In this document: one piece after another, positions 3,959 through 32,814 of the stretch | Numbering within the stretch: position 1 is the first letter of the stretch | How the letters are laid out: each line of letters opens with the position of its first letter | Source: Candidatus Woesearchaeota archaeon | GTDB lineage: Archaea > Nanobdellota > Nanobdellia > Woesearchaeales > GW2011-AR4 | Assembly: GCA_016185805.1 (NCBI GenBank) | Contig: JACPMW010000045.1 | Span: forward strand, 1 to 38,369 | Length of the DNA: 38,369 bases | Reading direction: 5' to 3' | Program-made: the position numbers and the translations under genes | Notes under the pieces: model-generated | What the model was told of the DNA's origin: nothing | The model's input: only the letters and a program-made list of their open reading frames with translations | Databases searched by the model: none

Positions 3959-4047
3959 CAAGCAGTATATTATAAAATATATTTTATATTTTTTCTATAG
4001 TTTATGTTAGTTTATAATATAATAGGTATTTAAAGATTGCTATAATT

Positions 4048-4326
4048 TTATTTCAAAAATAAGTATTTCACAGCCATTGTCGCAATAAAGAACAATGTGA
4101 CTCTAAATCCCCAAATAGTTATATGATAATTTCTAAGGGATTCTCCACCAAACTTTATAACAACTAATTCAGCTAGCACTGTAAGAACTATGCTTAAGAA
4201 TATAGCTGTACCCCATTCGGAAACAAAATTCATAACTTTTTGTCCTGCCCCTAATAATGCTAGAATAACTAATACTGCAATAAATATCTGTAAAAAAGTT
4301 TTAATTCTTCTATCTCCATTACTCAT
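4048..4326 (-). CDS. Small membrane protein (3 predicted TM segments)
   Basis: 92-aa ORF with hydrophobic stretches, starting right after the lipoprotein stop; AT-rich. Confidence 0.6.
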   Translation of the reverse strand: MSNGDRRIKTFLQIFIAVLVILALLGAGQKVMNFVSEWGTAIFLSIVLTVLAELVVIKFGGESLRNYHITIWGFRVTLFFIATMAVKYLFLK

Positions 4327-4327
4327 T

Positions 4328-5137
4328 TTAAGTCAATCCTCGACAATTAGCGTCTATTTTTTCGATAGAATCTTTAATATATAATCTAAATGACCCATAG
4401 TGGTCTCCTGCCCATTCACCAAAACTCATAGTAAACTTTTCCACTCTAATCCTAAACCACCAATAAACGTTATATAGAGCAAGCCCAAAACATTTATTTC
4501 CACAAAAATCTTTAAGTTTATAAATCTTTAATACGCCATTCAATTCTCCTATTTTTGGAAAGATTGCACTATGGATGTAGCTGCCTTGAACTAGAAAAAC
4601 ATCGGTTGCTAATGCAAATGCAGAAATATAAAATTTACCAACAGAATTCTGGTCATTTTTGTTAACTAACTTTGATTTTTCAATTAAGTTATTATATGGT
4701 TCTATCAAAGGGGTATATTTTTGTACTTTATCTACAACATTATCAAACTCTTCTGGGCTAACATCCATTAATTGAAATTGTGTTCCTATGTTCTCATTTA
4801 TGATTCCAATCACATAATTTACATTATCTTGAAATTTTACAAATTTTTCATAATTTTCAAACGTTGTTGCATCAACTTTCTCAAAATTACCTATCTTTGA
4901 AGACAAAGTTACTGCTAAGTTTCTTGAAGTCTCATTAAGGTTAAAATTAAAATCGTGTTCATAAAAAAAGTTGGAAGTTAGTAAATATAAATCACAGGAT
5001 TTGTCTTTTAATTCCGTTAATGTATTATTTCCTATAGTTGTTACAGTATCAACACTTTTTTGTACTTTTTCTTTCTGTTCGGGTGTACATCCTAATAGGA
5101 ATAATATAAATATCAAAAACCATACTTTATTTTTCAT
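4328..5137 (-). CDS. Hypothetical lipoprotein
   Basis: N-terminal MKNKVWFLIFILFLLGC lipobox-like signal; 269 aa; AT-rich relative to flanks. Confidence 0.7.
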   Translation of the reverse strand: MKNKVWFLIFILFLLGCTPEQKEKVQKSVDTVTTIGNNTLTELKDKSCDLYLLTSNFFYEHDFNFNLNETSRNLAVTLSSKIGNFEKVDATTFENYEKFVKFQDNVNYVIGIINENIGTQFQLMDVSPEEFDNVVDKVQKYTPLIEPYNNLIEKSKLVNKNDQNSVGKFYISAFALATDVFLVQGSYIHSAIFPKIGELNGVLKIYKLKDFCGNKCFGLALYNVYWWFRIRVEKFTMSFGEWAGDHYGSFRLYIKDSIEKIDANCRGLT

Positions 5138-5558
5138 TTTTTGTAAATTGGAATATTAGATATAACCACATTCCATACTTGTTTAATCATTTAAACTGGT
5201 TTATATCTGTATCAAAATAAGTATAGGCTATAACTATAAATGAGTTTTCTGGTTCTGTCGTCAATATTTTTGGCTCAATGGTTAAGTATCTGGGGTACAG
5301 ACTTGAATTCCTCATCTGTGCCATTAAATATTACATTATAATTATTTTAAGTAAGTAACTTGGATTATTTTGGGTAATATAATTCCAGTAGGTCTTAGTT
5401 CAACCCTAACAAATTCATTAGGCAAAAAAGCCTCTTTTTATCGTATTAACCAACTCCCCCAAATATAACTCTGAAACTCTTTTATTTAAACTTTTCCCAT
5501 TCAAGCCAAATAACAAACTTTAAATAAATCAATAAAGATATTGTCAAAAAAAGAGGTT

Positions 5559-12429: not shown

Positions 12430-12924
12430 ATGAAAAAAACACAAATAACGGGATTAAATAAAGGGACTATAATTAATAAAGAACCAACTAATCCAAATCA
12501 AAAAGTAGGACAAATAAGGGGGAGAATTATTGATTATTATATTCAAATTGAACTTTTAATTAATGCATTCTTAACAAATTATTTTGTTTTAGAGAATAAA
12601 CATAGTGATTTCTTAACTAAGTTTCTATACGATGATTTTTGCAGCACTGGACTAAAAATTAGAGTTCTTGAAAAATTATTGCCAGAAAATAAAATTGTTA
12701 GGGGATTCTATGTAGAATTAAGAAGATTAACTAATATTAGGAATATAGCTGCACATTCTTATCCTATGTCTTTAAATGGGCCAATAGTATTAGAAACAAG
12801 AAAACTGGAAAGTAAAGATTTAAGGGTATTGGAAGAAGAATTTTTTAAAATATATAAAAAAGTTTTTCCTTTATTGATAGACGCCGTGAATAAATTGATT
12901 GAAGACAAAGTCAAAATGAGTTAA
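12430..12924 (+). CDS. Putative HEPN-superfamily protein
   Basis: All-helical with an RxxxxH motif (RNIAAH); very AT-rich. Met at 12430 directly follows the aspS stop. Confidence 0.55.
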   Translation: MKKTQITGLNKGTIINKEPTNPNQKVGQIRGRIIDYYIQIELLINAFLTNYFVLENKHSDFLTKFLYDDFCSTGLKIRVLEKLLPENKIVRGFYVELRRLTNIRNIAAHSYPMSLNGPIVLETRKLESKDLRVLEEEFFKIYKKVFPLLIDAVNKLIEDKVKMS

Positions 12925-13024
12925 TTTACTTAATCAATATTAAAACGTCATTTAAAACCCTAACAATGAATTTAATTAACCAGAAATTTGGTAAAGTCAA
13001 ATAATTTAAGCAAATTCTAAGAAA

Positions 13025-13174
13025 TCAAAGTCTTCCTATATCCATCAGAATTTTCCTTCTTTTATCAATATAATCAAGCATTTCTTCTATTTCTTTTATG
13101 CTTGAATCTAAATGCAACTCATCTTTTAAATTCTCTAATTTCTCCTGTTTTGAGCCAATTTTTGATTTCTTCAT
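13025..13174 (-). CDS. Small hypothetical protein, 49 aa
   Basis: MKKSKIGSKQEKLENLKDELHLDSSIKEIEEMLDYIDKRRKILMDIGRL, with TATATAAA about 20-25 nt upstream. Confidence 0.35.
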   Translation of the reverse strand: MKKSKIGSKQEKLENLKDELHLDSSIKEIEEMLDYIDKRRKILMDIGRL

Positions 13175-13217
13175 ATTGTAAAAACTTATAATCTTTATAT
13201 AGTGCCCACTCTATAAA

Positions 13218-13688
13218 TTAGTTTCTATTTTGAGGTTCAACATAATTCATTTTAAGTGCTTTAAAAATATTTTTTTCAGAAATTGCTATAATTTTGCCTG
13301 TTTTTTTATCTATTAATCCATTAGCAGTAAGTTGCATATTCATAGATATAGCCCTTGTAGTCAGTTTTACATTATGTTCTTTGCTTCCTGTTCTAATCAA
13401 TAGTAAAGGCTCATAATTTTCTTTATTTGCAATATAAATATCAACTTGTGTGTTGTCTTTTGTTATCACTCTTATTAATTTGTCACCTTTAAGTTTTAGC
13501 TCTCCTAATTTAGATACATAATCCTTAAGCTTATCCAAGTTTTGTGGTTTTAATTCAATTACAATATCTATATCTCTTACAACTGGGTTTTTTCTTCTTA
13601 TACTTCCTCCTAAGCGTCCCCTAGCTATAAATGGAGATACCTGTTTAAGAATTTGTAAACCTTTTTTTTGTGCTTCGTCCAATCTCAT
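13218..13688 (-). CDS. Minimal family X DNA polymerase / nucleotidyltransferase (palm + thumb only)
   Basis: GSIRR..RDIDIV, QVDIY, RTGSKEHN, SEKNIFKALKMNYVEPQNR. 156 aa, with no lyase, fingers or PHP domain. Confidence 0.85.
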   Translation of the reverse strand: MRLDEAQKKGLQILKQVSPFIARGRLGGSIRRKNPVVRDIDIVIELKPQNLDKLKDYVSKLGELKLKGDKLIRVITKDNTQVDIYIANKENYEPLLLIRTGSKEHNVKLTTRAISMNMQLTANGLIDKKTGKIIAISEKNIFKALKMNYVEPQNRN

Positions 13689-13697
13689 GAGAATAAT

Positions 13698-14783
13698 TTA
13701 AAGGAATTCTATAGTAACTCCATCCGGATACGAAAATTTTCTTTTTCTATGGCCCAAAACTTGTATTTCCCTTTTTTCTTCCATAGGTTTAAGTATACTA
13801 GTTTTATAATGAAACGTTGTAAATGGGGTTTTAGCAATAACAAAATGTTCTAGTTTTTTGGCAGTTACTCTTTTACCTTTATACTCTTTTAATATCATCT
13901 TCTTTAATTCAGAAAAATTTGGACCTAGCTCAAATAATACAGTTTGATTAGGATTATAAGTTGCGTCAGAAAATTCAAAATTACCTTTTTTATCCACCCT
14001 CCACATTGCCTCTTTCATCCTTTCTAACCCTAGCAAACTTTTAGTAGCAAAAAATAATAAATAATCATCTTTATTAGATTTATTTTTCATCTTAAAAGAA
14101 TGGACAAAGTTAGCCACAGTACTTAATTGACCTAGATAAGAATCATGAATAATCTTGAATCTTTCCTCAGGACTTTTGCCTCTTGCATCCTTCCATTTTT
14201 CATTTCCAAAGAGTTTGATATACGTTTGTTCCAATCTAGTATCATCAATGAACCTGTTTATCTCTTCATACATAAAAGTTATTAATATTTCACAAAAATC
14301 GTTTTTCATTATCTTATTAATTACTTCAAAAGGAGTATCTTTAAATCCAAATGGATCTATAAAAACAAAAGTTGGGGCTATTGACTTATTTTTTTCATTA
14401 AGCTTATTCAGCTCATTTTCAATAACATCAGAAAATTCACCACATATGCACGCGTAACTCACATTTTTTGGGATTGAGATTGTTTTTAATTTATTTTGTA
14501 AAAAATCATATCTATCCTTATCTTTTTCTATAAATAAGAAAAATATTTTTGATGCTATTGGAATTCTTTGTTCTGCAACAGACTTTATTGCAATAACTGG
14601 AGAACCATCTTCTTTACCATTATATTCTCCTGGCCCAGAAAATCCATCTATAATGTTGACATTCTTCGCCCAGCTAGATAAGATTGGGATCCAAGCATCT
14701 AAATATTTTCTTAAGATGGCATGTTTCGCTTCTGTATGAGGCTCTATGTCCCATATGGTAGTTGTAATTTTCCCCATATTCAA
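13698..14783 (-). CDS. tcmP: Three-Cys-motif partner protein (TcmP / GMT-wHTH family, methyltransferase fold)
   Basis: HTEAKHAILRKYL, IDGFSGPG, GSP, FIDPFG; adjacent to DUF5131 as is typical. Confidence 0.85.
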   Translation of the reverse strand: MNMGKITTTIWDIEPHTEAKHAILRKYLDAWIPILSSWAKNVNIIDGFSGPGEYNGKEDGSPVIAIKSVAEQRIPIASKIFFLFIEKDKDRYDFLQNKLKTISIPKNVSYACICGEFSDVIENELNKLNEKNKSIAPTFVFIDPFGFKDTPFEVINKIMKNDFCEILITFMYEEINRFIDDTRLEQTYIKLFGNEKWKDARGKSPEERFKIIHDSYLGQLSTVANFVHSFKMKNKSNKDDYLLFFATKSLLGLERMKEAMWRVDKKGNFEFSDATYNPNQTVLFELGPNFSELKKMILKEYKGKRVTAKKLEHFVIAKTPFTTFHYKTSILKPMEEKREIQVLGHRKRKFSYPDGVTIEFL

Positions 14784-15590: not shown

Positions 15591-15614
15591 TTCACCTGAA
15601 AATGTCCAGTGCTA
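15591..15614 (-). promoter_or_regulatory. Pre-TATA motif copy 1 (TAGCACTGGACATTTTCAGGTGAA)
   Basis: Immediately followed by GTATTTAAA and the DUF5131 operon; 21/24 identical to the copy at 20989. Confidence 0.55.
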
Positions 15615-23616: not shown

Positions 23617-23892
23617 CTAGATTTTGGTTTTACTAATTTTCAAATAGTTATTCCAGATATCGTCTTGCTTGTTGCCCCAGACGTCCTTAAGCGCCTGTTC
23701 GCTAAATCTCATCAAATCCTTGAAATGGTCTTTCATTTTTGCTGATACCCTGTGTGATTTTTCTATCAATATTTTTCCATTGGATTCAAAAATAACTAAT
23801 TCGTCCCCTTTTTTGATGCCTGCCTGCTCCCTAATGGTTTGCGGAATGGCTATTTGCCCTTTGTCAGAAACTTTTATGGTTTTAACAATCAT
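23617..23892 (-). CDS. AbrB/MazE family antitoxin
   Basis: KVSDKGQIAIPQTIREQAGIKKGD; directly upstream of the toxin. Confidence 0.9.
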   Translation of the reverse strand: MIVKTIKVSDKGQIAIPQTIREQAGIKKGDELVIFESNGKILIEKSHRVSAKMKDHFKDLMRFSEQALKDVWGNKQDDIWNNYLKISKTKI

Positions 23893-24057
23893 GATGAAGG
23901 TAAGAATTTTCTTACTTATAAGCTTTTCGGTTTTGAAGAGCGGAATGTGTTAAAACCAAAGGAAAGGCAGCCCCTAAGAAGTCAATGAGATAATTGTGAA
24001 GCTAATTAAATAATTTCCATCAAAAAGCTTTTATATGCCTTCTAAAAAGAAAGATTC

Positions 24058-25386
24058 ATGTCAAAAAAGAGCTTGTTGTTTTCATTAGTTTTGATTTCTT
24101 TTATAATTTCTGGCTGCACAGCAAAAGTAGAACAGCAGGAAGCTACCCAAATTCCTGAAATCAAGGAAAGTATAGAACAGGAGCAGAATGATTATGATAC
24201 AGCACAACAATCCGACATTTTGGAAGAAAGAGATATTGAGCATGGAAAGGAATCTTCCCAACAATCTGGCTGGTCAGTCCTGCATACAAAACTAGATGGG
24301 TGTCAAGAAAAAGATGTTGTATTCACAAGCCTTCCCTTGGATATTGAGGATATAACGGCGGTTGAGCCTCAAGGAGAGCTTACAAATTCAGGGCATGTAA
24401 CTCCGGGCGACCATGCTGGATTCCAGTATGATGCAAAAACAAAAATTAACGTTTATGCAATGGCAGACGGGTACATCAAGAGAGTGGAAAGGAACAGGCC
24501 CTTTGGCGAGCTAAAATCAAAGAATTATCATGTATACATAGAATTTTCCTGCTCGATGTTCGCAAGCTATGTGCATGTGACAGAGATTGCGCCTGAAATT
24601 TTGGAAGCATCTCCTGAATTCAAGAGACTGGATTCTCTGGAAGAGGTTCCTGACAATGAGAGAAGCATCTGGCCAAACATACCCATAAAAGCAGGACAAA
24701 TTATTGGAAAGGCAAATGAATGGGGCTTGCTTGGGATGCTGATTGCAGACACCAAAGTCACGCTTCCCGGATTTGCCAATCCTGAAAAATATAAAGGGGA
24801 AGACTGGAAAATGCACGCTGTTCCTCCATTCGATTATTTCACGCCAGAGCTTAAATCGCAGCTTATGGAAAAGAATCCAAGGAAAAAAGAGCCAAAAGGG
24901 GGCAAGATAGATTTTGATGTTCCCGGAAAACTGTCTGGCAATTGGTTCCTGGAAGGCACAGACTATGCGGGTTCAAAGGAAAAAATCCCGATATATTGCG
25001 GAAACCAGTTATGTCCTTACTGGAGCGGGCATCTTGCATTTGTGTATGATTTTGTCGATCCTGACCAAGCCAGAGTTTCATTTGGAGACTATTCCGGATG
25101 GTATCCTCAGGGCCCGTATGGCATGAAAGGAAATGCAGACTTTGCAAAAATTAGTGCAGAAGACGGATTAGTAAATCTTGAGCTGGTGTCAATAGATGAC
25201 ATCGGAAATGAGTGCGGATTTGTAACACAGGGAAAGCCGCTTTGCACAAGGAACAGCAATAATGTTGTTGGCATCATACTTGTCCAGATGCTTGATAACA
25301 ATAAAATAAAAGTTGAGCTGTTTCCAGGCAAGACAGCATCGGAAGTTGCAGGCTTTACAGGCAAAGCAAAAGTTTATGAGAGGTAA
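24058..25386 (+). CDS. Lipoprotein with a possible degenerate M23/LytM-like domain
   Basis: Lipobox IISGC; VYAMADGYI, YVHV and IKAGQIIG follow M23 spacing. Confidence 0.6.
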   Translation: MSKKSLLFSLVLISFIISGCTAKVEQQEATQIPEIKESIEQEQNDYDTAQQSDILEERDIEHGKESSQQSGWSVLHTKLDGCQEKDVVFTSLPLDIEDITAVEPQGELTNSGHVTPGDHAGFQYDAKTKINVYAMADGYIKRVERNRPFGELKSKNYHVYIEFSCSMFASYVHVTEIAPEILEASPEFKRLDSLEEVPDNERSIWPNIPIKAGQIIGKANEWGLLGMLIADTKVTLPGFANPEKYKGEDWKMHAVPPFDYFTPELKSQLMEKNPRKKEPKGGKIDFDVPGKLSGNWFLEGTDYAGSKEKIPIYCGNQLCPYWSGHLAFVYDFVDPDQARVSFGDYSGWYPQGPYGMKGNADFAKISAEDGLVNLELVSIDDIGNECGFVTQGKPLCTRNSNNVVGIILVQMLDNNKIKVELFPGKTASEVAGFTGKAKVYER

Positions 25387-25433
25387 AATGCCAATAAAAT
25401 TCCTGGATTTTGTTTTATTTTCATAAATTGTCC

Positions 25434-25508
25434 CGTATAACCGCTTTTTTGCGGTTCGCTTCGCTCAGCCTAAGTTTCAGCAAAACTTCGCAAAAAAATA
25501 GTTATATG
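25434..25508 (+). repeat. attC-like hairpin, left (CGTATAAC...GTTATATG)
   Basis: TAAC/GTTA core boxes, inner stem TTTTTTGCG/CGCAAAAAA, internal GTTCGCTTCGCTCAGCC shared with the right site. Confidence 0.7.
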
Positions 25509-25728
25509 TTCGTTCGTGCCGCTTCTTCATTATGGTTTTACCTTGCAGGTCGTGGAATAACTTTCGCATAATCTGGAAGATTATACGCAGGTCTTAAACT
25601 AGTGTACGCATAATTCGAGAAAACCCGCCTATTCCTGATAATATTAACCGTAAATCCTTTAGTTGTCGCCTTTCTAATGCAGTAAAATAACAGTAAACAT
25701 TTTAAACTACTAAAGACCTCCAGTCTTT

Positions 25729-26892
25729 ATGGCAAATAATGAGGAAAACTGGGTTATGCCCGAAGAAGACGATGATGGGGGAGAAGATACGCCTTTAGAA
25801 TATAATATAACTTCTTCTCCAAATGATTTTAATACAAAAACTGTATTTGATTTTATGGAAAAGGGGATTGTTAAGATTCCAGGATTTCAAAGAAATTATG
25901 TTTGGGACATAAAAAGAGCTTCTAAGTTAATAGAATCCATAATTATGGGGTTGCCAATTCCTCAGATATTTTTGTATGAAAAAGATAAGAATGACTTTCT
26001 AGTAATAGATGGTCAACAGAGACTTATGACAATCTACTATTTTTTTAAAAAAAGATTCCCTAGGCAAGATAAAAGAATTGAATTGAGAAAAGTCTTTGAT
26101 ACCGAAGGTAAAATTCCAGATAGAATCCTTGAAAGTAACAGTTATTTTACAGATTTTGAGTTAAAGCTGACAGAACCTGTCCCTGAGGTTGATAACAGGC
26201 TAGATGGTTTAAATTATTCAACATTAGAAGATAACGATAGGAATACATTTGACTTAAGAACTATAAGAATTGTGATAATAAAACAAAGTCATCCTCCAGA
26301 TGACCATTCTGCCATGTATGAGATATTTTATAGATTAAACACTGGCGGGATGAACTTAAATCCACAAGAAATAAGGGCTAGTTTATACCATTCAGATTTT
26401 TATGATATGCTTTCTAAATTAAACTTGAATAGTAAATGGAGAAGATTAACAAAACCAGAACCGGATTTGCATATGAAAGATATTGAGATTATAGTTAGGG
26501 GTTTTGGCATGTTAATGGAAAATCAAAATTATAAGCCTTCAATGGTTAAATTTCTTAATACATTTTCCCAAAAAAGTAAAACCTTCACTACACAAAAAAT
26601 AGACTACTTAAAAGAATTATTTGAAGGATTTTTAGATGCCTGTGATAATTTGCCTAACAAAATTTTTTTAACTCAGTCAGGTCAATTTAATGTTTCTATG
26701 TTTGAGGCAGTTTTTGTTGCCGCTACAACTGAACCTTATCAAAATGAGGACACGAATGTTAAAATAATTGATGCTGACAAACTGAATGCGCTAAAGGAAG
26801 ATCAGGAGTTTAGTGATGCAATTCAAAGACAAACTACTAGTAAGAAAAATGTTTTAATAAGAATAAGCAGAGCTCGAGAAATTTTATTGTAA
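25729..26892 (+). CDS. DUF262 (ParB/Srx-like, GmrS-type) domain protein
   Basis: PGFQRNYVW, LIESIIMGLPIP, VIDGQQRL, IFYRLNTGG. Confidence 0.9.
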   Translation: MANNEENWVMPEEDDDGGEDTPLEYNITSSPNDFNTKTVFDFMEKGIVKIPGFQRNYVWDIKRASKLIESIIMGLPIPQIFLYEKDKNDFLVIDGQQRLMTIYYFFKKRFPRQDKRIELRKVFDTEGKIPDRILESNSYFTDFELKLTEPVPEVDNRLDGLNYSTLEDNDRNTFDLRTIRIVIIKQSHPPDDHSAMYEIFYRLNTGGMNLNPQEIRASLYHSDFYDMLSKLNLNSKWRRLTKPEPDLHMKDIEIIVRGFGMLMENQNYKPSMVKFLNTFSQKSKTFTTQKIDYLKELFEGFLDACDNLPNKIFLTQSGQFNVSMFEAVFVAATTEPYQNEDTNVKIIDADKLNALKEDQEFSDAIQRQTTSKKNVLIRISRAREILL

Positions 26893-26904
26893 TGATTCAT
26901 TTTC

Positions 26905-27423
26905 ATGGTAGAAAACATTATAGATGAATTCTATAAACGGCACTTAGAATTATTAAATTATTTGGAAGAAAATAAAGAGATTTCGCTTAGAAGTGAAGCT
27001 GATGATAATTTTAAAAAAGTTTTAGTCATAGCCATTGCTAGTTTTTTTGAACAGGAAATTATAGACACCCTAAATAGGCTTATAGAAACCAAAATTAATG
27101 ATGGTAGATTAATATTTTTCAGTAAATTTAAAGGCATCAGGCGCCAATATTATACTTATTTTGACTTTGATACCGACAATAATGCCAATCGATTTTTTAA
27201 AATTTTTGGAGATGAATTTAAAAAACAGGCAGAAGAAGATGTAAAATTAAATCAAGATTTGGGGCAAGGAGTTAAGTCTTTCTTGGAGATAGGATTGACA
27301 AGGGACAGGTTAATTCATCAAAATTTTGCTACTTTCTATTTAGAGAAAACTTCAATAGAAATTTATAACTTATATAAATCAGCAATGGTTTTCATAGACT
27401 ACTTAAAAAATAAATTATGTTAA
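26905..27423 (+). CDS. HEPN domain protein (DUF262-associated type)
   Basis: IASFFE and RDRLIH (RxxxxH); 12 nt downstream of DUF262. Confidence 0.8.
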   Translation: MVENIIDEFYKRHLELLNYLEENKEISLRSEADDNFKKVLVIAIASFFEQEIIDTLNRLIETKINDGRLIFFSKFKGIRRQYYTYFDFDTDNNANRFFKIFGDEFKKQAEEDVKLNQDLGQGVKSFLEIGLTRDRLIHQNFATFYLEKTSIEIYNLYKSAMVFIDYLKNKLC

Positions 27424-27429
27424 TCATTA

Positions 27430-27831
27430 TTAATTTGATAAATAAAATTTCATTATTTTGTTGATGCATTTTTCTAGATTTTTCTTAATATCGTGCTCCC
27501 AGACTCTGATTACTTTCCATTCCTCTTTTTTCAGCATTCTATTATATTTCTTTGCCCTATCAATATTTTTCTGAATTTTTTCCTGCCAATACTTTCTAGG
27601 CGGCACTTTTCCCAATTTTTTCCAATTGTAACCATGCCAAAAGTCGCCATCAAGGAAAACTGCAATTTTATGTTTTTTGCTACCGAAGTCTGGATTTCCT
27701 AGTATTCCTTTTGGCTGATATCTAAGGTAAGTCCCTTTTAGCCTAGCTTTTAAAAACAGCTCTGGGCTTGTATTATTTGAGCGTATCTTTGACATTACTT
27801 CGCTTCGCTTTTTTTTGGTAAAAACATCCAT
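27430..27831 (-). CDS. vsr: Very short patch repair endonuclease
   Basis: DVFTKKKRSEVMSKIRS, GNPDF, FLDGDFWHG, RVWEH. Confidence 0.93.
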   Translation of the reverse strand: MDVFTKKKRSEVMSKIRSNNTSPELFLKARLKGTYLRYQPKGILGNPDFGSKKHKIAVFLDGDFWHGYNWKKLGKVPPRKYWQEKIQKNIDRAKKYNRMLKKEEWKVIRVWEHDIKKNLEKCINKIMKFYLSN

Positions 27832-27922
27832 AATCCCTATTAGCTGGGATTCCTTTTAAATAATTTACTGGTCATAACTACAATGGAAAATAATATAAGT
27901 AGCAACATGTTACCTATTCATT

Positions 27923-28900
27923 ATGGAAAAGATAAAAAAGAAAATTTCGATTTCAGATATTAGAGAAGGGAATGTAGTGGAGGATATATTTGTTGTTAAA
28001 ATAAAGAAAGATTTCAAGCCTTATAGTAAGGGGTACAGTTTCACTCTAGTTCTTACGGATTCCAGTGGGGGAAGCTTGGACCTTAAGTTTTGGGGAGACT
28101 CAGATGAAAACAAAGTAAAGGCACTTTTTGATTCTATACCTTCAGATTCTGTTTTGAAAGTTTCAGGGAAAGCTAGCTCCTATCAAAGCATAATGCAACT
28201 AGCAATTAACGATTATAATAGTATACAGTTATTAAAGCCAGGGGAGTATGATTCCTCGGATTTTATACCGACAACAAAAAAAGACATAGAGCAAATGTAT
28301 AAGAATCTTATTGAAATTATAAATACTATTTCTGATGAAAAGATAAAAATCCTACTGCTCGAAGTGGTAGAAAAAGATTTCAAAGAGGAAATCAAAATAC
28401 ATCCAGCAGCCATTCAGTACCATCATGGATGGGTTGGAGGATTGCTAGAACATATCTTAGAAGTGATTGAGATATGTGAAACTGCATTTAAGATTAATGG
28501 CTCATTGAATAGGAATCTTTTGATTGCAGGAGCTATACTCCATGACATAGGGAAAATAGAGGAATTGGAGGTTACAACTAGAATAAAGGCAACCAGGAAA
28601 GGTCAATTGATTGGACATTTGACAATGGGGGCTTTTTATGTTAATAAGAAGCTTGAGTCCTCTCAAATTGATGATTTAACCAAAGAAAAATTGATACATC
28701 TTATATTAAGTCATCATGGAAAGTTCGAATACGGGTCACCAAAAGAGCCTATGTTTCCTGAGGCAGCAGTTTTGTACTATGCCGATGAGTTAAGCTCTAA
28801 GCTTGCCGAGTTGCACAAAATTGTAGAAGACAATAAAGATGTTACAGAAGATGATTTTACTTTTGTTAGAAGGAAAGGCAATAATATTTTCCTAAGGTAA
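27923..28900 (+). CDS. YhaM/Cbf1-like 3'-5' exoribonuclease (OB fold + HD domain)
   Basis: LTDSSG, HPAAIQYHHGWVGGLLEH, LHDIGK, ILSHHGKFEYGSP, YADEL. Confidence 0.88.
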   Translation: MEKIKKKISISDIREGNVVEDIFVVKIKKDFKPYSKGYSFTLVLTDSSGGSLDLKFWGDSDENKVKALFDSIPSDSVLKVSGKASSYQSIMQLAINDYNSIQLLKPGEYDSSDFIPTTKKDIEQMYKNLIEIINTISDEKIKILLLEVVEKDFKEEIKIHPAAIQYHHGWVGGLLEHILEVIEICETAFKINGSLNRNLLIAGAILHDIGKIEELEVTTRIKATRKGQLIGHLTMGAFYVNKKLESSQIDDLTKEKLIHLILSHHGKFEYGSPKEPMFPEAAVLYYADELSSKLAELHKIVEDNKDVTEDDFTFVRRKGNNIFLR

Positions 28901-29941
28901 AATAATTTTTTCTTCTTGTATTTTTGCCAAATTTGCCGACCACTCTTTTATCTTGCCTTGTTGTTTTAGCTCCAATAGGTCTTTCATAATTTGCATGGCC
29001 AATGCTTCAGCCAGTTTAACAGGCACGGCATTACCTATCATCTTATACCCATCTGCAACATTACTATAATAAAATACAAAATCGTCTGGAAAGGTTTGTA
29101 TCCTTGCACATTCCCTTACTGAAAGCCTCCTGTAGAGATTTTCTTTGCTCTTTATAAATTCCATCTTATCTTTTTGGACATGCCTCATTTTTGGGGCCTT
29201 TGGATGGCAAGGCGCATGCCTACCGCCTGCCTGAATTGTGAAAGAAGGCTCATCCCAGCCTCTTACCCTATTTCTTGACATATAGATAGTAGAAAATCCG
29301 CCATTCATGTATTCATGGTTGTATATTTCTAATTTTCCATTTGACTTATTTTTCTGGCTCGCGGGAATAGGCTCTGGCAAGTCACCAATTGCATCTTTTA
29401 ACATTGACTTAGCCTCTAAAGGCTTTGGAAATTCAAACTTCTTCCCAAATTTTTCATGGTAGCCTACAACAATAACCCTTTTTCTCTCCTGCGGAACCCC
29501 ATAATCATTCGCATCAAGCAATTTAAAGGAAACATTGTAGCCAATTTGCTTAAAGGCATTAACTATTTTCATAAATTCAGTGTAATGCCTGCTAGACAGT
29601 AGCCCAGCAACATTTTCAGCTAAAAAGAATAGTGGCTTTTTTTCTTTAATTAGCCTAACATAATCATAAAAAACTCTACCTCTAGGGTCATTTATTCCTC
29701 TCATTGCCCCTGCAAGGCTCCAGCTTTGGCAAGGCGGACCTCCAACAAAGCCAACAACATCAGGAACTTCATCAGCTTTTATTTTAGTGATAGATTTTTT
29801 ATTAATAGAAATTTTATGGTTTTTTTCAAATGTTTCCCAGCAGCCTTCCCAATTGTCATTGGCAAATGCTAGCTTAAATCCTGCATTTGTAAACCCTAAA
29901 TCCAATCCACCGGCTCCTGAAAAAAATGATGCTATTTTCAT
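28892..29941 (-). CDS. C5-cytosine DNA methyltransferase, HaeIII/NgoPII-like (probably GGCC)
   Basis: FSGAGG, GGPPCQSWS, ENV, QERKR, TRD STIYMSRNRVR, IGNAVP; the TRD resembles M.HaeIII as recalled. Confidence 0.93.
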   Translation of the reverse strand: MKIASFFSGAGGLDLGFTNAGFKLAFANDNWEGCWETFEKNHKISINKKSITKIKADEVPDVVGFVGGPPCQSWSLAGAMRGINDPRGRVFYDYVRLIKEKKPLFFLAENVAGLLSSRHYTEFMKIVNAFKQIGYNVSFKLLDANDYGVPQERKRVIVVGYHEKFGKKFEFPKPLEAKSMLKDAIGDLPEPIPASQKNKSNGKLEIYNHEYMNGGFSTIYMSRNRVRGWDEPSFTIQAGGRHAPCHPKAPKMRHVQKDKMEFIKSKENLYRRLSVRECARIQTFPDDFVFYYSNVADGYKMIGNAVPVKLAEALAMQIMKDLLELKQQGKIKEWSANLAKIQEEKIILP

Positions 29942-30795
29942 TTTTCCTTAAATGATATTAGCTTTGCGTCAATCTGCTTAGCTGGGTTATTTGGGTTTTT
30001 AATTTTTATTTCACTTACTGAAATTTCCTTATTGCTCTCCACTTTTTGCCTATCTTCCTTTGGGAATGAGTCATATTTATCTTTTTTCATGATGGCAAAC
30101 AAGTGAAATTTTCCATCGCTTTCTACTTTGCAATGACTTTCATATACTCTCAAGGGATTCTTAATGTGCCACATACCCCTAATTCTTAATTCAGTGATGC
30201 CCAGTGGGTCTACTTTTCTGACTTTTCCTATTTCAACAGTCTCTCCCTTTTCAAGATTTAGGCTGTCAAGCACCTTGTCAACTTGCTCTTTTATTGGCGA
30301 ATGCACCTTATTATAAACATCATGGTCAGCAGCATAGCAAGTTCCTTGGATAAAGAAGAGGTAATTAACTTTTCCATTCTTTGCGTGTCCTATAACATAG
30401 AATAGCTCTTTTTCTTTCCATCCGGGCTCACAATTTCTGCATGCTTTTGTAATTCTGGCATCTGTTGACAACAGCTTATCTTTCGGAGGTGAGCTATTTA
30501 ACGCAAGCGCAGATTTTGGGCTTTCAATTTTCTTTATTTCAAAAGCATCGCTATTCTTAATAATCATGTCCGGCGGGTTATTTTGGTTGCCCAGGTAAGA
30601 GAATATTTTTGAGTATGTTTCCTCTTTTTTCTCTTGGGGCAGTTTAAATGAGTCTGCTATGGCATCCCTAACGTAATATTCAAGCTGCTCCCCAACCGCA
30701 TTAATCCTTATCAGATACTTAGAAGCATAGCTCTTTAAATCATTATTTCCAAAAGAAACAATGCTTGAAACGGCACTTAATATATTGTTTTGCAT
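29938..30795 (-). CDS. NgoPII-family type II restriction endonuclease
   Basis: FSYLGNQNNPPD, DAFEIKK, LALNSS, VDPLGITELRIRGMW; ATGA overlap with the MTase. Confidence 0.88.
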   Translation of the reverse strand: MQNNILSAVSSIVSFGNNDLKSYASKYLIRINAVGEQLEYYVRDAIADSFKLPQEKKEETYSKIFSYLGNQNNPPDMIIKNSDAFEIKKIESPKSALALNSSPPKDKLLSTDARITKACRNCEPGWKEKELFYVIGHAKNGKVNYLFFIQGTCYAADHDVYNKVHSPIKEQVDKVLDSLNLEKGETVEIGKVRKVDPLGITELRIRGMWHIKNPLRVYESHCKVESDGKFHLFAIMKKDKYDSFPKEDRQKVESNKEISVSEIKIKNPNNPAKQIDAKLISFKEK

Positions 30796-30841
30796 ATCAC
30801 ACCCTTTGTTTTCCTATAATATACGGAACTGATTTATAAAG

Positions 30842-30865
30842 CTTGCCCACAAATGTCCAGTGGTC
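30842..30865 (-). promoter_or_regulatory. Pre-TATA motif copy 3 (GACCACTGGACATTTGTGGGCAAG)
   Basis: Same CACTGGACAT core and spacing, followed by CTTTATAAA and the REase gene. Confidence 0.5.
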
Positions 30866-31091
30866 AAAAATCAATTAAAATACCATAATGAAGAGTAAAT
30901 TACGGCGACAACTGGGATTTATGGCGGGTTTTCAACTAGTTTAAGAAACTTTTTTGCAAAAAGATGTTATTCCACTAAAACCATATGAGAAGCTAAATGC
31001 CGAATTTTCCATCAAAGGAAATTCGGGCGGCACGAACAACTAAATCCTCACGAAATCGGGCATCAAAGCCCTCATTCGTTGCGGCTTAATT

Positions 31092-31173
31092 CATATAACA
31101 CATTTTAGGCAGTTCGTTCGCTCAGCCATCAAAGGCATCGCTCACTATGTTCGCCTAAAATGTACGTTATACG
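31092..31173 (+). repeat. attC-like hairpin, right (CATATAAC...GTTATACG)
   Basis: 11-bp inner stem ACATTTTAGGC/GCCTAAAATGT, a 2-nt bulge before GTTA, internal GTTCGTTCGCTCAGCC. Confidence 0.7.
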
Positions 31174-31228
31174 AACAATTTAAACCCAAAACCTTTCCAG
31201 CCAAGATGCTGTCTAATCTGCTGGACTT

Positions 31229-31582
31229 TTAGGTTTTTTTCTCAAAAGCAAGAACCTGCTCAAGCATACCCAGTTCAGATAGTCTAGCGTTTACTGCTTC
31301 CTCTGAATGCTTTAGTTTTCTTGCTGCGGCTTTTAATGAGCCATACATTTTTATTCTGTCTATGATTGAATCTAATTCACCAAGGGTTATTGGTCTTCTT
31401 CCTGCCTTTTTTATTACCCGGTTATTAAGAAGCCCTTCATTTTCCCATATTTGCCTAAGATTAGGCATTGAAGGAAGTGGAGCTACACGGCCTCTCAATT
31501 GTTCTCTTGCTATTGAAGCCAAGCCTTTGCTAGAGTTATAAGCTTCCCTAATGTAGCCAATTTGCTCATTGGTGTAACCCAT
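31229..31582 (-). CDS. Hypothetical protein with C-terminal HTH-like motif
   Basis: GSLKAAARKLKHSEEAVNARLSEL resembles a LysR-type HTH. Confidence 0.55.
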   Translation of the reverse strand: MGYTNEQIGYIREAYNSSKGLASIAREQLRGRVAPLPSMPNLRQIWENEGLLNNRVIKKAGRRPITLGELDSIIDRIKMYGSLKAAARKLKHSEEAVNARLSELGMLEQVLAFEKKT

Positions 31583-31596
31583 TTGAAACTCCGAAA

Positions 31597-32814
31597 TTAT
31601 AAATCCAGCTCCAGAACCCTGCCAACTTCTTCCCTTACTCTTCCCTCAAAATCAGGAACTGTTTCCCCTTCCTGCTTTTCCGTGCTCAAGATTTTCATCA
31701 AATTTTTTATTAGCTCTTCCTCTTTCTCTGTGCTCAAATTGTCCAATTTTATCTGGCCCAGGTGCTCTTTGACTAAAAATGATTCTATGTCATCCACATT
31801 CTTTGCGTCTGTCTTTATCTCCTCAAACTCCTGTGATGCTAGTGCGTGCAAGCTTTTCATTACAAAATAAGCCGACTTGCTGTAAATTTCATTGAAAATT
31901 TCCTTGAAATCGATATCAGATGGCTTGCCTGACTCGAGCGTTCCAAAAAGCCTTATCAAGACAACTGTGTTGTTGAATTCTTTGTTTTTTATCTCATTGA
32001 AAATCTCATTTTTAATCTCGTCAGGGCTTTTATGGCTGCAATCCTTGTTTATCTTGTAGATATTATAAATCTGTACAGGCTCCCATCTTGCATTTCCATC
32101 TTCAACAATGTAGAAGCCGCCCCTCTCCAGTTTCTCCAATTCCGCAAAGCTGTTCGGAAATAATGGCCCCGGATAAACAATTCTCCCATAGCCTTCAATC
32201 TGCTTGTCATCAACAATATGGACGTGGCCGCCGGCGTAATAGTCAAAGCCCTTCGGCAGCAGAGACAATGGCTGCGAGATTATGTTTTCCATCTCCTTTG
32301 GCTTCAGTTCATCAATCCCGGAGTGAAACATAAAAATCTTGTATCCCTCTTCTCCCTCCAGATTTTCCAGAATAAGCTTTTCGTAATAGGATTTTTCCAA
32401 TGAGCCTCTTTTCCCAAGAATTCCTGTTATCTTTGCACCTGTTTTTTTGTCAACAGTAAAATTTAATTTTAATTTGCCGTCTTCAGCGCTTCCCTTGAAC
32501 ACATTTACAAACAATCCGGCTTCCTCCAGGACATCAAGAATTGTCTTTCCGCTCGGGCTGTAGTCATGCGAGCCCGGCACTATATAAACTGGAATTTCCA
32601 AATCCTTTAATTGCTTGAATTTTGTGACAACTGCTTTCAAATTATCAAGCCTTGGAAAAGAGGTGTTGAACAAATCGCCTGCAATCAGGATAAAATCCAC
32701 TTTTTCTTTTATGCACTTGTCAATTGCCTTGCAAAATGCCAGAGTGCTTGTATCCTTCAGTTTCGGGTCTCTCCACGAGCCTATATGGCAGTCCGCTAAA
32801 TGGGCGAATTTCAT
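31597..32814 (-). CDS. mre11: DNA double-strand break repair nuclease Mre11/SbcD
   Basis: AHLADCHIG, IAGDLF, PGSHD, FHSG, GGHVH, YPG; near herA. Confidence 0.9.
   Translation of the reverse strand: MKFAHLADCHIGSWRDPKLKDTSTLAFCKAIDKCIKEKVDFILIAGDLFNTSFPRLDNLKAVVTKFKQLKDLEIPVYIVPGSHDYSPSGKTILDVLEEAGLFVNVFKGSAEDGKLKLNFTVDKKTGAKITGILGKRGSLEKSYYEKLILENLEGEEGYKIFMFHSGIDELKPKEMENIISQPLSLLPKGFDYYAGGHVHIVDDKQIEGYGRIVYPGPLFPNSFAELEKLERGGFYIVEDGNARWEPVQIYNIYKINKDCSHKSPDEIKNEIFNEIKNKEFNNTVVLIRLFGTLESGKPSDIDFKEIFNEIYSKSAYFVMKSLHALASQEFEEIKTDAKNVDDIESFLVKEHLGQIKLDNLSTEKEEELIKNLMKILSTEKQEGETVPDFEGRVREEVGRVLELDL

Follow-up and report, generated by a model that had tools for sequence, protein, structure and literature searches.

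Organization of the locus

The window, i.e. the whole stretch of 38,369 nucleotides that was analysed (contig JACPMW010000045.1), comes from a tiny groundwater DPANN archaeon labelled as Woesearchaeota. A segment of 5,665 bp in this stretch carries six genes between two hairpin sites and two conserved non-coding modules, arranged as follows:

25403-25433, + strand: left outer flank of the resident site with CTGGA, GTTTT and TAAATTGT (read directly; fold of the rebuilt empty site)
25434-25501, + strand: resident hairpin site hpL, from box CGTATAAC to the G of the crossover GTT (read directly; fold)
25501-25508, + strand: hybrid box GTTATATG, the resident-site G plus TTATATG of the cassette start (sequence)
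25501-25672, + strand: conserved non-coding left-end module B, beginning exactly at GTTA[T/C]ATG in every copy
25502-31166, no strand assigned: cassette, 5,665 bp (boundaries, folding, complementarity)
25729-26892, + strand: DUF262/GmrSD_N protein, NsnA-like, 387 aa (Pfam PF03235 3.6e-33; PADLOC NsnA 1.9e-62)
26905-27423, + strand: HEPN (RiboL-PSP type) protein, 172 aa (Pfam PF18735 2.4e-10; PADLOC none)
27430-27831, - strand: Vsr-type mismatch endonuclease, 133 aa (Pfam PF03852 1.1e-21; PADLOC Vsr 6e-15)
27923-28900, + strand: OB-fold and HD-domain nuclease, YhaM-like or Cas3-HD-like, 325 aa
28892-29941, - strand: C-5 cytosine DNA methyltransferase, 349 aa (Pfam PF00145 1.5e-95; PADLOC MTase_II 1.4e-110)
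29938-30795, - strand: NgoPII-family type II restriction endonuclease, 285 aa (Pfam PF09521 9.2e-89; PADLOC REase_II 4.2e-95)
30959-31091, + strand: conserved non-coding right-end module A, small hairpins with ATCAAAG loops (conservation, fold, depth)
31092-31166, + strand: the cassette's own hairpin site hpR, from box CATATAAC to the G of the crossover GTT (sequence; fold)
31166-31173, + strand: hybrid box GTTATACG, the cassette-site G plus TTATACG of the resident site (complements 25434-25441)
31174-31200, + strand: right outer flank of the resident site, AACAATTTA...AAAAC...TCCAG (sequence; fold of the rebuilt empty site)
31229-31582, - strand: 117-aa ORF of unassigned family (no Pfam, NCBIfam or PADLOC match)

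The cargo is a portable defence island that combines an NgoPII-type restriction-modification pair and Vsr, a DUF262 (NsnA-like) and HEPN pair, and the OB-HD nuclease. The original prediction had described six genes on both strands, which the ORF list and Pfam bear out with three ORFs per strand, and the length of 25502-31166 equals the circle length that it gave. A promoter-like TTTATAAA...ATGTCCAGTG lies at 30833-30862 upstream of the restriction gene, and the left half of the cassette has a G+C content of 0.28-0.33 vs about 0.40 in the flanks. A cassette in a relative (G010:C18) has much the same cargo, at nucleotide identities of 85% and 79%, and other end modules; the OB-HD nuclease is missing from this otherwise matching copy. 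The ORF at 31229-31582 lies outside the cassette, but inside a variable stretch that is absent from relatives, and gave no tblastn match in six syntenic loci. Both hairpin sites sit in 3' intergenic DNA between convergent genes. As had been noted before, no integrase is encoded nearby: the window contains no tyrosine recombinase, and the only one of this genome is located on another contig (C17).

Boundary sites

The boxes of the left site are CGTATAAC (25434-25441) and GTTATATG (25501-25508), those of the right site CATATAAC (31092-31099) and GTTATACG (31166-31173). Read directly from the window, all box coordinates in the original prediction are correct and the crosswise complementarity is real, with the hybrid box GTTATATG complementing the cassette's own box at 31092-31099 at 8/8 positions. 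This crosswise match alone is weak (about 1 in 16), since each box has a single variable position (G/A and T/C). The internal architecture of the sites differs: hpL has a 9-bp stem (TTTTTTGCG/CGCAAAAAA), a 3x3 internal loop and a loop with GGTTCGCTTCGCTCAGCC, while hpR has an 11-bp stem (ACATTTTAGGC/GCCTAAAATGT), a loop with AGTTCGTTCGCTCAGCC and a 2-nt AC bulge between the inner stem and the GTT box. As for the earlier remark on a missing L box, neither site seems to follow the textbook attC layout: the AC bulge on the right and the 3x3 loop on the left are found in place of the usual spacer and extrahelical bases. Textbook attC sites, as scored by IntegronFinder or HattCI, carry RYYYAAC/GTTRRRY boxes and an L box with extrahelical bases within 57-141 nt; the two sites here are 75 and 82 nt long and their boxes ATATAAC/GTTATAT match this consensus in part only.

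The pattern TATAAC-N40-70-GTTATA occurs twice in the window vs 0.04 expected occurrences, and two or more were found in 0/100 shuffles. The loop motif TTCGCTCAGCC, noted before as common to both sites in direct orientation, has just two copies in the window, at 25460 and 31117 of the + strand (0.29 expected; at least two copies in 3/100 shuffles). Genome-wide, GTACGTTA has only two copies in 0.94 Mb, both at such sites, vs about 37 expected from base composition.

Rebuilding the recombination products by script gave structures that fold far better than both present sites. The left site as present reaches -13.7 kcal/mol (z -1.7) and the right site -14.1 kcal/mol (z -2.9), compared to -24.7 kcal/mol (z -9.4) for the empty site (25403-25501 plus 31167-31200) and -47.2 kcal/mol (z -8.0) for the circle junction (30975-31166 plus 25502-25545). 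In the rebuilt empty site 25403-25433 pairs with 31174-31200. The crosswise match of the boxes is thus backed both by the outer pairing TAAATTGT/ACAATTTA and by folding. Right outer flank and box together read GTTATACGAACAATTTA, which mirrors the type of arm seen next to other members of the family described below.

Mutually pairing cassette ends

The attachment site is larger than initially seen. The first ~45 nt of the cassette find their pairing partner 65-125 nt upstream of the cassette's own 3' box, which results in a folded junction of ~236 nt; in the window, bases 25512-25545 of module B pair with 30975-31038, i.e. inner segments of module A pair with the start of module B. Bases 9-48 of B reach -18 to -25 kcal/mol against their own A in five of seven elements, representing three sequence types, whereas pairing across types is weaker (-6 to -16 kcal/mol). 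Three compensatory changes in the end pairing separate the type of the window from that of L175a, and the remaining two elements (L170, L171) have degenerate or mismatched ends. Forms in which a right end is joined to a left end occur naturally (L091/L175 and L246). Contigs of run X1 diverge directly before 25501, and in this run the contig depth reaches 195 in the bin of module A vs ~16; module A is therefore multi-copy sequence.

A cassette family in Woesearchaeota

The island at 25502-31166 belongs to a cassette family of Woesearchaeota (DPANN) that occurs throughout the genus and in parts of the order. Its members have in common module B at the left end and module A followed by a hairpin at the right end, with variable cargo in between, for the most part genes of restriction-modification or of other kinds of defence (restriction-modification or helicase-nuclease genes in 4/7 B...A elements, window included). 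None of the seven B...A elements contains a recombinase. Pieces of the modules were found in 35 of the 43 genomes of the genus, and a viral contig collection gave no match.

The boundaries are exact. In all left junctions (13/13 genomic and 9/9 on metagenome contigs), module B begins at GTTA[T/C]ATG and is preceded by unrelated DNA. In 9/13 genomic junctions this DNA ends in an arm of the type GAAAGTTCGTNAAAC followed by 2-5 nt (with AAG in place of AAC in one of these nine). At the right end seven junctions could be read; they go on with GTTATACGAAC, GTTAAATGAAC or GTTTCACGAAC, which mirrors the left arm. Hairpins of the hpL type are also present in three other genomes (G048:C25, G021:C13, G020:C93) and at the metagenome locus L251, and each of these four copies is conserved up to GTTA and diverges right after it into other DNA. 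Moreover, the cassettes follow the rule known from integrons that a start box is complementary to the box in the 3' site of its own cassette: the mean match is 7.5/8 (n = 10 cassettes in 8 genomes, of which six reach 8, three 7 and one 6), vs a mean of 5.7/8 between the boxes of one present site (10 sites), and the observed sum was reached in 0/10,000 permutations. Boxes covary accordingly, GTTATATG with CATATAAC, GTTACATG with CATGTAAC, GTTAAACT with AGTTTAAC and GTTTGCC with GGCAAAC.

Similar sites, alternatively filled sites and arrays do exist elsewhere. Arrays of three sites were found in G002:C10 and G024:C55, the array sites in L180 show a layout of box, short spacer and second stem, and the genome of the window has several target sites (C22, C53, C5 and C17). 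Short perfect palindromes whose centre measures 3-5 nt are common targets, and each genome has between 0 and 2 solo palindromes (9 sites in 7/43 genomes). The spacing between arms ranges from 3 nt to ~190 nt, and in some members the boxes are only 9-13 nt apart and lack a hairpin, so that the site may also be double-stranded.

Empty form and synteny

At the locus itself, assembled contigs of four runs contained neither the circle junction (31166 to 25502) nor the exact empty site (25501 to 31167), and assemblies drop rare forms. The only empty form is a contig of a relative in run X1 that joins 25386 to 31601, which means that the resident hairpin and the ORF at 31229-31582 are missing there as well. 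In the syntenic relative G016 the island is absent and the same flanking genes are separated by a 16-bp gap. The breakpoints at this locus are thus at gene ends, contrary to the expectation that they would coincide with the GTT cores.

A probable integrated gene cassette

We consider it likely that 25502-31166 represents an integrated cassette whose family moves between DPANN archaea of the Woesearchaeota type. Part of the earlier reading is thereby retained, namely the bounds formed by recombination-type hairpins, the crossover at G|TT(A), the family of cassettes, of which several have defence genes, and the DPANN host, while IntI and core breakpoints at this locus are not. The free form would be a circle in which the right end (module A and hpR) meets the left end (module B), and the joined ends might fold or extrude into a long imperfect palindrome of ~236 nt with the boxes CATATAAC and GTTATATG as part of its stem. 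A tyrosine recombinase would then exchange strands at G|TT of the cassette site and of the resident hairpin (CGTATAAC...GTTATACG) downstream of the 442-aa gene, each hairpin keeping its stem and swapping the bases 3' of the G. Since GTTA (here GTTATA) is all that the partners have in common and every junction retains a spacer of its own, exchange of one strand, completed by replication, seems most likely, a step that would resemble attC recombination in integrons or integration of CTX phage by Xer. Cassettes of this kind may be mobile today.

Candidate recombinases and alternative explanations

The acting enzyme had been predicted to be of the IntI/XerA type and to act in trans. The XerA half of this prediction is matched by a gene on contig C17, the only PF00589 gene of the genome, which encodes a diverged XerA paralogue; the IntI half is not, as 0/43 genomes of the genus pass the cut-off of the IntI model and every match skips model positions ~182-234, the IntI-specific domain. 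The C17 recombinase scores 189 bits in two stretches against TIGR02249 (cut-off 265) and 218.8 bits in one stretch against XerA_Arch (cut-off 220), and likewise aligns in one stretch to the XerA structures 5hxy and 4a8e and in two to IntI4 (2a3v). Upstream of the gene, ~190 nt are conserved in five genomes to ...TTTAGGTTATATAC[C/T]GTTA and then diverge, i.e. a conserved box-hairpin ends at GTTA, and in 4/7 loci a module common to the C53 cassette comes after this boundary. The DNA 3' of the gene also varies between genomes, so that the GTTA boundary could be the end of a gene-carrying element instead of an attI. The paralogue is present at ≥75% identity in only 9/43 genomes of the genus (five intact, one broken, three fragments), with a 61% relative in one further genome, and is absent from G046 (93% complete, 8 contigs), where cassettes are present. 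Housekeeping XerA lies above the NCBIfam cut-off in most genomes of the genus (271-278 bits vs 220). It was not found in the genome of the window (86% complete). Judged from sequence, the acting enzyme is probably not an integron integrase and the diverged paralogue on C17 appears to be the best candidate, the housekeeping XerA of relatives being an alternative one. A search of the window genome for resolvases or serine recombinases and for Y1 transposases (PF01797) gave no match; a single TnpB-like frame on C34 is unlinked to any site.

An unlikely alternative is an integrative element that exploits housekeeping XerA in the manner of IMEX or Acinetobacter dif modules, which would make the arms dif-like XerA sites and the C17 paralogue irrelevant. 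This is compatible with solo sites like TTCGTTAAAC-ACGG-GTTTAATGAA, in which two 11-nt arms and a 6-nt spacer can be made out, the layout of dif (PMC8371274), and the elements encode no recombinase, are maintained in genomes that lack the paralogue and occur in a genus where most genomes have a XerA that passes the cut-off. However, there are only 0-2 solo palindromes per genome, the arm spacing of 3 to ~190 nt is beyond the tolerance of a duplex dif-type site, and the genome of the window (86% complete) yielded no housekeeping XerA. The solo site on contig C5 of this genome is not a fixed chromosomal dif either, as G013 lacks the intergenic stretch around it at the syntenic position.

Less probable still is a regular integron cassette within an attC cluster that has no integrase; the true IntI would be missing from incomplete assemblies or be supplied by other organisms, bacteria included. 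The cassette rule, the G|TT crossover and the arrays in relatives all fit, as does the site layout in L180, and integrons of archaea, in most cases with no integrase on the contig, were reported from Nanoarchaeota among other phyla (PMC9668308). The IntI model result across the 43 genomes speaks against this explanation. So do the six genes on both strands between conserved, mutually pairing ends of 130-170 nt, neither of which has, to our knowledge, been described for integron cassettes, and the partial fit of ATATAAC/GTTATAT to RYYYAAC/GTTRRRY.

Very unlikely is a transposon that is non-autonomous, bounded by long imperfect terminal inverted repeats and targeted to palindromes, with its transposase elsewhere and GTTA as target duplication. 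In its favour, the left ~45 nt match a region close to the right end as inverted complement, GTTA is found at both ends, and self-complementary ends are formally also terminal inverted repeats. However, GTTA is invariant in the 22/22 left junctions read, and box bases 5-8 covary with the element's own 3' box, which identifies the box as a recombination core and not a target duplication; on the right, the inverted repeats are not terminal but lie 65-125 nt inside, and the genome has neither a Y1 transposase nor a serine recombinase, only the unlinked TnpB-like frame. A different origin of the island, with hairpins that are mere terminators or palindromes by chance and have no relation to each other, can practically be dismissed: the position of both sites between convergent genes and a reciprocity that amounts within the window to one variable base per box would suit it, but the shuffle controls, the family-wide boundaries, the permutation test and the scarcity of GTACGTTA all oppose it.

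Returning to the integrated cassette, a more far-reaching and only tentative proposal is that Woesearchaeota-type DPANN archaea might run a cassette capture by integron rules, with palindromic sites that fold, crossover at G|TT, exchange of one strand and arrays, driven by a XerA-family recombinase without the IntI-specific domain, and move multi-gene defence islands with an end-folded attachment structure of ~240 nt. If true, integron-type recombination would have been invented a second time and independently here, or else the system would be a living relative of the transition from Xer to IntI.

Comparison with known systems

Archaeal integrons and attC clusters were described by Ghaly et al. 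2022 (PMC9668308), and the IntIs reported therein do have the extra domain. The cassettes studied here resemble integron cassettes in ending in an imperfect palindrome with AAC/GTT boxes and a G|TT crossover, in a start that complements the box of the cassette's own 3' site, in arrays in relatives and in partner sites with few common bases, which fits single-strand exchange. Similarly, a recombinase gene has a conserved site just upstream and variable DNA beyond it. They differ in that the recombinases lack the IntI-specific domain around patch III (0/43 genomes pass the IntI model). Most integron cassettes consist of one ORF without a promoter of its own, in a common orientation. Cassettes of integrons are 'generally in the same orientation' (PMC9668308). 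The cassette in the window, in contrast, has six genes on both strands over 5.7 kb. Further differences are the conserved end modules of 130-170 nt that pair into the ~236-nt structure and the short perfect palindromes with a 3-5-nt centre that serve as common targets.

IMEX such as CTX phage integrate as a folded single strand through XerCD at dif. They have in common with the present family the absence of an own integrase, a folded hairpin attachment site, a candidate enzyme of the Xer family and non-identical spacers that imply exchange of one strand followed by replication. On the other hand, the targets here are many hairpins or palindromes and not a single chromosomal dif (11-6-11 palindrome), and the cassettes lack replication or virion genes. 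The pdif sites of plasmids are 28-bp duplex sites with fixed spacing. In Acinetobacter plasmids, such XerC/XerD sites bound gene modules, the dif modules (PMC6449649, PMC13141974). These modules are likewise small, sometimes multi-gene, placed between Xer-type inverted-repeat sites and shuffled among replicons with no recombinase of their own, but the 3 to ~190 nt spacing, the mutually pairing ends, the integron complementarity rule and the archaeal host set the present family apart.

IS200/IS605 elements rely on the Y1 (HUH) transposase TnpA and have subterminal left-end and right-end hairpins. A hairpin transposon of this type was rejected, as PF01797 has no match in the genome of the window and the hairpins are att-type sites with common AAC/GTT cores. 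Finally, the evolutionary transition from Xer to IntI has been addressed by Escudero et al. 2016 (PMC4792948), and the family described here, be it an ancestral-like state, a convergence or the result of a secondary loss, recalls it by pairing a Xer-like candidate enzyme with integron-like sites.

Cassette content and variability of the locus

The interval between the cores of the two hairpin sites spans 5,665 bp and carries six genes, flanked by genes that are syntenic in genomes of the same genus.

Features of the cassette and its immediate surroundings (boxes read from the sequence)
24058-25386, + strand: left flank, 442-aa protein of no known family
25434-25441: left site (resident hairpin), first box CGTATAAC
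25501-25508: left site, second box GTTATATG
25501-25672: module B, non-coding left end of the cassette
25502-31166: cassette
in the cassette: DUF262/GmrSD_N protein (PADLOC NsnA, 1.9e-62)
in the cassette: RiboL-PSP HEPN protein
in the cassette: Vsr
in the cassette: OB + HD nuclease
in the cassette: C5 cytosine methyltransferase
in the cassette: NgoPII-family restriction enzyme
30959-31091: module A, non-coding right end of the cassette
31092-31099: right site (the cassette's own), first box CATATAAC
31166-31173: right site, second box GTTATACG
right flank, - strand: 117-aa ORF of no family
right flank, - strand: calcineurin-like phosphoesterase (Pfam Metallophos)

The left half of the cassette has a G+C content of 0.28-0.33 vs ~0.40 outside; stretches at 4000-5500 and 12500-14500 of the window (0.26-0.29 vs ~0.40) resemble it. 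The 442-aa gene, directly upstream of the resident hairpin, encodes a protein with 33-43% identity to its syntenic homologues vs 70-88% for most neighbouring genes compared, a pattern that might reflect either rapid evolution or repeated replacement.

The genome of the window (0.94 Mb in 58 contigs, 86% complete) has named relatives, for its DNA and its proteins, that carry the labels Candidatus Woesearchaeota or Nanoarchaeota. In one related genome (G016) a gap of only 16 bp separates the homologue of the 442-aa gene from the phosphoesterase gene, three others (G006, G021, G020) hold 0.8-1.8 kb of different DNA at the same spot, and a contig from groundwater metagenome run X1, possibly the source sample, connects 25386 with 31601 through four other letters. 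The locus is thus variously filled or empty, and the island is therefore an insertion into a variable spot. In the empty forms the resident hairpin and the 117-aa ORF are missing as well; synteny had been predicted to break at the GTT cores, and these forms (G016 and the X1 contig) break at gene ends. Neither the joint 25501/31167 nor the back-joint from 31166 to 25502 occurs in the assembled contigs of runs X1, X5, X6 and X7, which carries no weight on excision because such contigs lose rare forms.

Folding of the sites

The four box positions of the original prediction are exact, and re-reading bore out its crosswise pairing, with 8/8 complementary bases between sites and one mismatch within each. 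The window contains two occurrences of TATAAC-N40-70-GTTATA vs 0.04 expected, a count reached in 0/100 shuffles, and the loop motif TTCGCTCAGCC is confined within the window to both sites, in identical orientation. As present, the left site folds with -13.7 kcal/mol (z -1.7) and the right site with -14.1 kcal/mol (z -2.9), while the empty site rebuilt by script reaches -24.7 kcal/mol (z -9.4) and the rebuilt circle junction (236 nt) -47.2 kcal/mol (z -8.0). Crosswise complementarity alone is a one-base argument, which the folding backs. A scanner demanding complementary boxes within one site missed the window sites because integrated sites are hybrids; across the family, sites were scanned by patterns and BLAST, with 9 to ~190 nt between boxes.

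A further AAC...GTT palindrome lies at 23875-23960 (TATGGTTTTAAC, 62 nt, GTTAAAACCAAA; 11/12 complementary; -14.4 kcal/mol, z -2.2), overlapping the start of ORF 23617-23892 (-); it lies on the upstream side of the 442-aa gene and could be an additional site or a divergent promoter.

A family of cassettes with varying cargo

The loop motif was searched in 185,579 species genomes, giving 121 matches in 120 stretches where our own estimate of chance was ~500. One Woesearchaeota contig (L091) stood out, and the other matches were judged from context as chance or coding. In L091, ~190 nt similar to window 30959-31146 (76%) are followed by a hairpin and at once by ~200 nt similar to window 25501-25672 (73%); by sequence, this is a right end joined to a left end. 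Rfam searches of the window and L091 assigned modules A and B to no family (four matches, all far under threshold), and ARAGORN found no tRNA in either. Small hairpins with the common loop ATCAAAG occur in window 30975-31135 and L091 2340-2480 (GGGCATCAAAGCCC, GCCATCAAAGGC) and on contig C53 of the window genome (CCCCATCAAAGGGG); they look like repeated putative binding sites of some factor.

Pieces of the 519-nt module of L091 are present in 35/43 genomes of the genus, commonly with several copies each and frequently at contig ends, as well as in 12/250 genomes from elsewhere in the order, of which one is unpublished. A search of the viral contig collection with the first 35 nt of module B gave no exact match. 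Six more units with the window layout (module B, cargo, module A and site) were read (G013:C8, G007:C222, G048:C6, G022:C39, G001:C22 and G046:C1), and their cargo varies: an NgoPII restriction enzyme with a methyltransferase, Vsr and three unknowns; a 789-aa methyltransferase fusion with an HNH protein; a PLD-helicase with an AAA_23 (SMC-like) ATPase and a methyltransferase; a hydrolase; a peptidase-like gene; and a small HTH protein. Conversely, nearly the window's cargo occurs in another genome (G010:C18, L179 4193-8326; 85% identity over 2,062 nt and 79% over 1,895 nt) between end modules unlike those of the window, without the OB-HD gene (196 nt where the window has 1,308). Short AAC-N4-GTT palindromes, e.g. 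CATTTAAC-AGCG-GTTAAC, flank this cargo. The window genome itself contains a second, shorter element of ~2.1 kb (C53:18460-20745, -) whose end modules differ from those of the window. It starts with GTTATATG, preceded by a hairpin with a 136-nt loop 96% identical to that of L091, and ends with box CATATAAC and a degenerate 3' arm.

Boundaries and target sites

Module B starts with GTTA[T/C]ATG in all left junctions (13/13 from genomes, 9/9 from metagenome contigs), the DNA before it is unrelated from locus to locus, and X1 contigs diverge precisely before 25501. An arm like GAAAGTTCGTNAAAC plus 2-5 nt precedes module B in 9/13 genome junctions, and a hairpin 3' arm in the others. The seven readable right junctions show GTAC or a variant followed by GTTATACGAAC, GTTAAATGAAC or GTTTCACGAAC, mirroring the left arm. 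The targets are therefore palindromes or hairpins, which the element would enter in their right half, at G|TT.

Short palindromes that stand unfilled (TTCGTNAAAC-N3-5-GTTTNACGAA) occur at 9 sites in 7/43 genomes (reversed-pattern control: 0), and their variable base covaries between the arms. One of them (C5:2401-2424 of the window genome, TTCGTTAAAC-ACGG-GTTTAATGAA) lies in an intergenic stretch missing from G013; this absence and the low number of genomes with such sites led us to reject these palindromes as the chromosomal dif. Alternatively filled sites, as originally predicted, were found: hairpins of the resident type also occur in G048:C25, G021:C13, G020:C93 and metagenome locus L251, each running into different DNA directly after GTTA. 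Site-specific integration of the island as a cassette, with crossover at G|TT, is highly probable, and the finding is real and richer than first described.

Cassette rule and proposed mode of exchange

Ten cassettes from 8 genomes were compared: their first 8 bases are complementary to the box of the 3' site of the same cassette at 8, 7, 8, 8, 8, 8, 7, 8, 7 and 6 of 8 positions (mean 7.5), a sum reached in 0/10,000 permutations; the two boxes of one site as present average 5.7/8 (10 sites). This rule is kept with differing box sequences, e.g. in G002:C10 and G024:C55, which hold arrays of three sites. Partner sites have only GTTA in common (GTTATA in the window), and the spacer in each junction comes from one partner. 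These observations do not fit a classical exchange of both strands over a 6-8-bp identical overlap. Exchange of one strand followed by completion through replication would fit both, and this mode is known for attC recombination and CTX integration. We regard the full mechanism as rather likely.

The ends of the cassettes might fold together into a larger structure for attachment. Over its first ~45 nt, module B matches the complement of segments that lie 65-125 nt upstream of the 3' box of the same cassette (e.g. GTTCGTGCCGC with GCGGCACGAAC and TTCTTCATTATGGTTTTA with TAAAACCATATGAGAAGC). Cognate ends pair with -18 to -25 kcal/mol in 5/7 elements, representing three sequence types, and ends paired across types reach -6 to -16 kcal/mol; the remaining two elements have degenerate ends. 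Three compensatory double changes distinguish the window type from the L175a type, the natural joined module of L091 folds with -64.1 kcal/mol (z -5.6), and a second natural joined form was found in L246. Formally, the paired ends are also inverted repeats, but three unrelated sequences all retain the pairing, which speaks for a structure and not for a common protein-binding sequence.

A candidate recombinase

The window genome encodes a single PF00589 protein (C17:1469-2308, 279 aa); no resolvase or Y1 transposase was found in it, and its one TnpB-like frame is unlinked to any site. Against the archaeal XerA model (cut-off 220 bits) the C17 protein matches in one stretch with 218.8 bits, and against the integron integrase (IntI) model (cut-off 265) in two stretches with 189 bits; it likewise aligns in one stretch to XerA structures and in two to IntI4. 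Most genomes of the genus carry a second recombinase, the regular XerA (271-278 bits), which is 37-42% identical to the C17 protein; it is absent from the contigs of the window genome (86% complete), which may be an assembly gap. The C17 type (at least 75% identity) is present in 9/43 genomes (five intact, one broken, three fragments), with a 61% relative in one more, and its public homologues often lie on 1-3-kb contigs. The IntI model was passed by 0/43 genomes, and all matches skip the IntI-specific domain positions. Of the trans-acting IntI/XerA-type enzyme originally proposed, the IntI part thus finds no match in the 43 genomes and the XerA type keeps a candidate on C17, whose role as the enzyme we propose only tentatively.

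About 190 nt upstream of the C17-type gene are conserved in five genomes and end in CCTATAAC, a 6-bp stem and TTATATAC[C/T]GTTA, beyond which the sequences diverge; in 4/7 loci the DNA that follows carries a module with which the C53 cassette also begins. This region looks like a candidate attI. Because the DNA on the other side of the gene also differs among genomes, the C17-type gene and its site may be mobile themselves. About 500 nt beyond the GTTA boundary lies a hairpin site with perfectly complementary boxes (C17:2983-3060, CGTTTAAC...GTTAAACG). A T-arm-like stretch, GGGGGTTCAAATCCCCC (C17 ~2860-2900, ~350 nt past the boundary), was discarded as a tRNA, with no ARAGORN or Rfam call.

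A doubled GTCCAGTG motif upstream of the recombinase was rejected as recombinase-specific. It also precedes a presumably housekeeping gene on C39, read by eye as acylphosphatase, and TTTAAATA...ATGTCCAGTG is a promoter-like motif found genome-wide (TATA box TTTAAATA or TTTATAAA, then ATGTCCAGTG ~15 nt on; TGTCCAGTG is counted 21 times in the window genome). In the window it occurs at 15603, 21000 (-) and 30854, with a copy within the cassette upstream of the NgoPII gene.

Implications and comparison with known systems

Little is known of how DPANN archaea, which depend on hosts and whose genomes are very small, gain and exchange defence genes. In this lineage, modules for restriction-modification and other defence functions probably move as site-specific cassettes over a genus and parts of its order, a concrete route of defence-island turnover in these archaea. 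The sites break assemblies and many family members lie at contig ends, so the defence content of such metagenome-reconstructed genomes is probably undercounted. If true, a cassette rule obeyed without the IntI extra domain would be another way of reading folded sites, and such a system would make the proposed Xer-to-integrase transition testable using natural enzymes.

No title or abstract among those listed by literature searches describes such a system in Woesearchaeota or DPANN. Archaeal integrons have been published, mostly as attC clusters without integrase and with Nanoarchaeota included; in that study, all six reported archaeal IntIs have the extra domain, described as necessary for integron-mediated recombination (PMC9668308). 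A 2021 review of archaeal tyrosine recombinases gives dif as 11-6-11, reports weak binding of stem-loop structures by one XerA, and lacks the terms 'IMEX', 'hairpin' and 'DPANN' (PMC8371274). The present system appears to work like an integron, from which it departs in the integrase. Like IMEX elements and Acinetobacter dif modules it may borrow a Xer-type enzyme, and it departs from them in not relying on a single dif.
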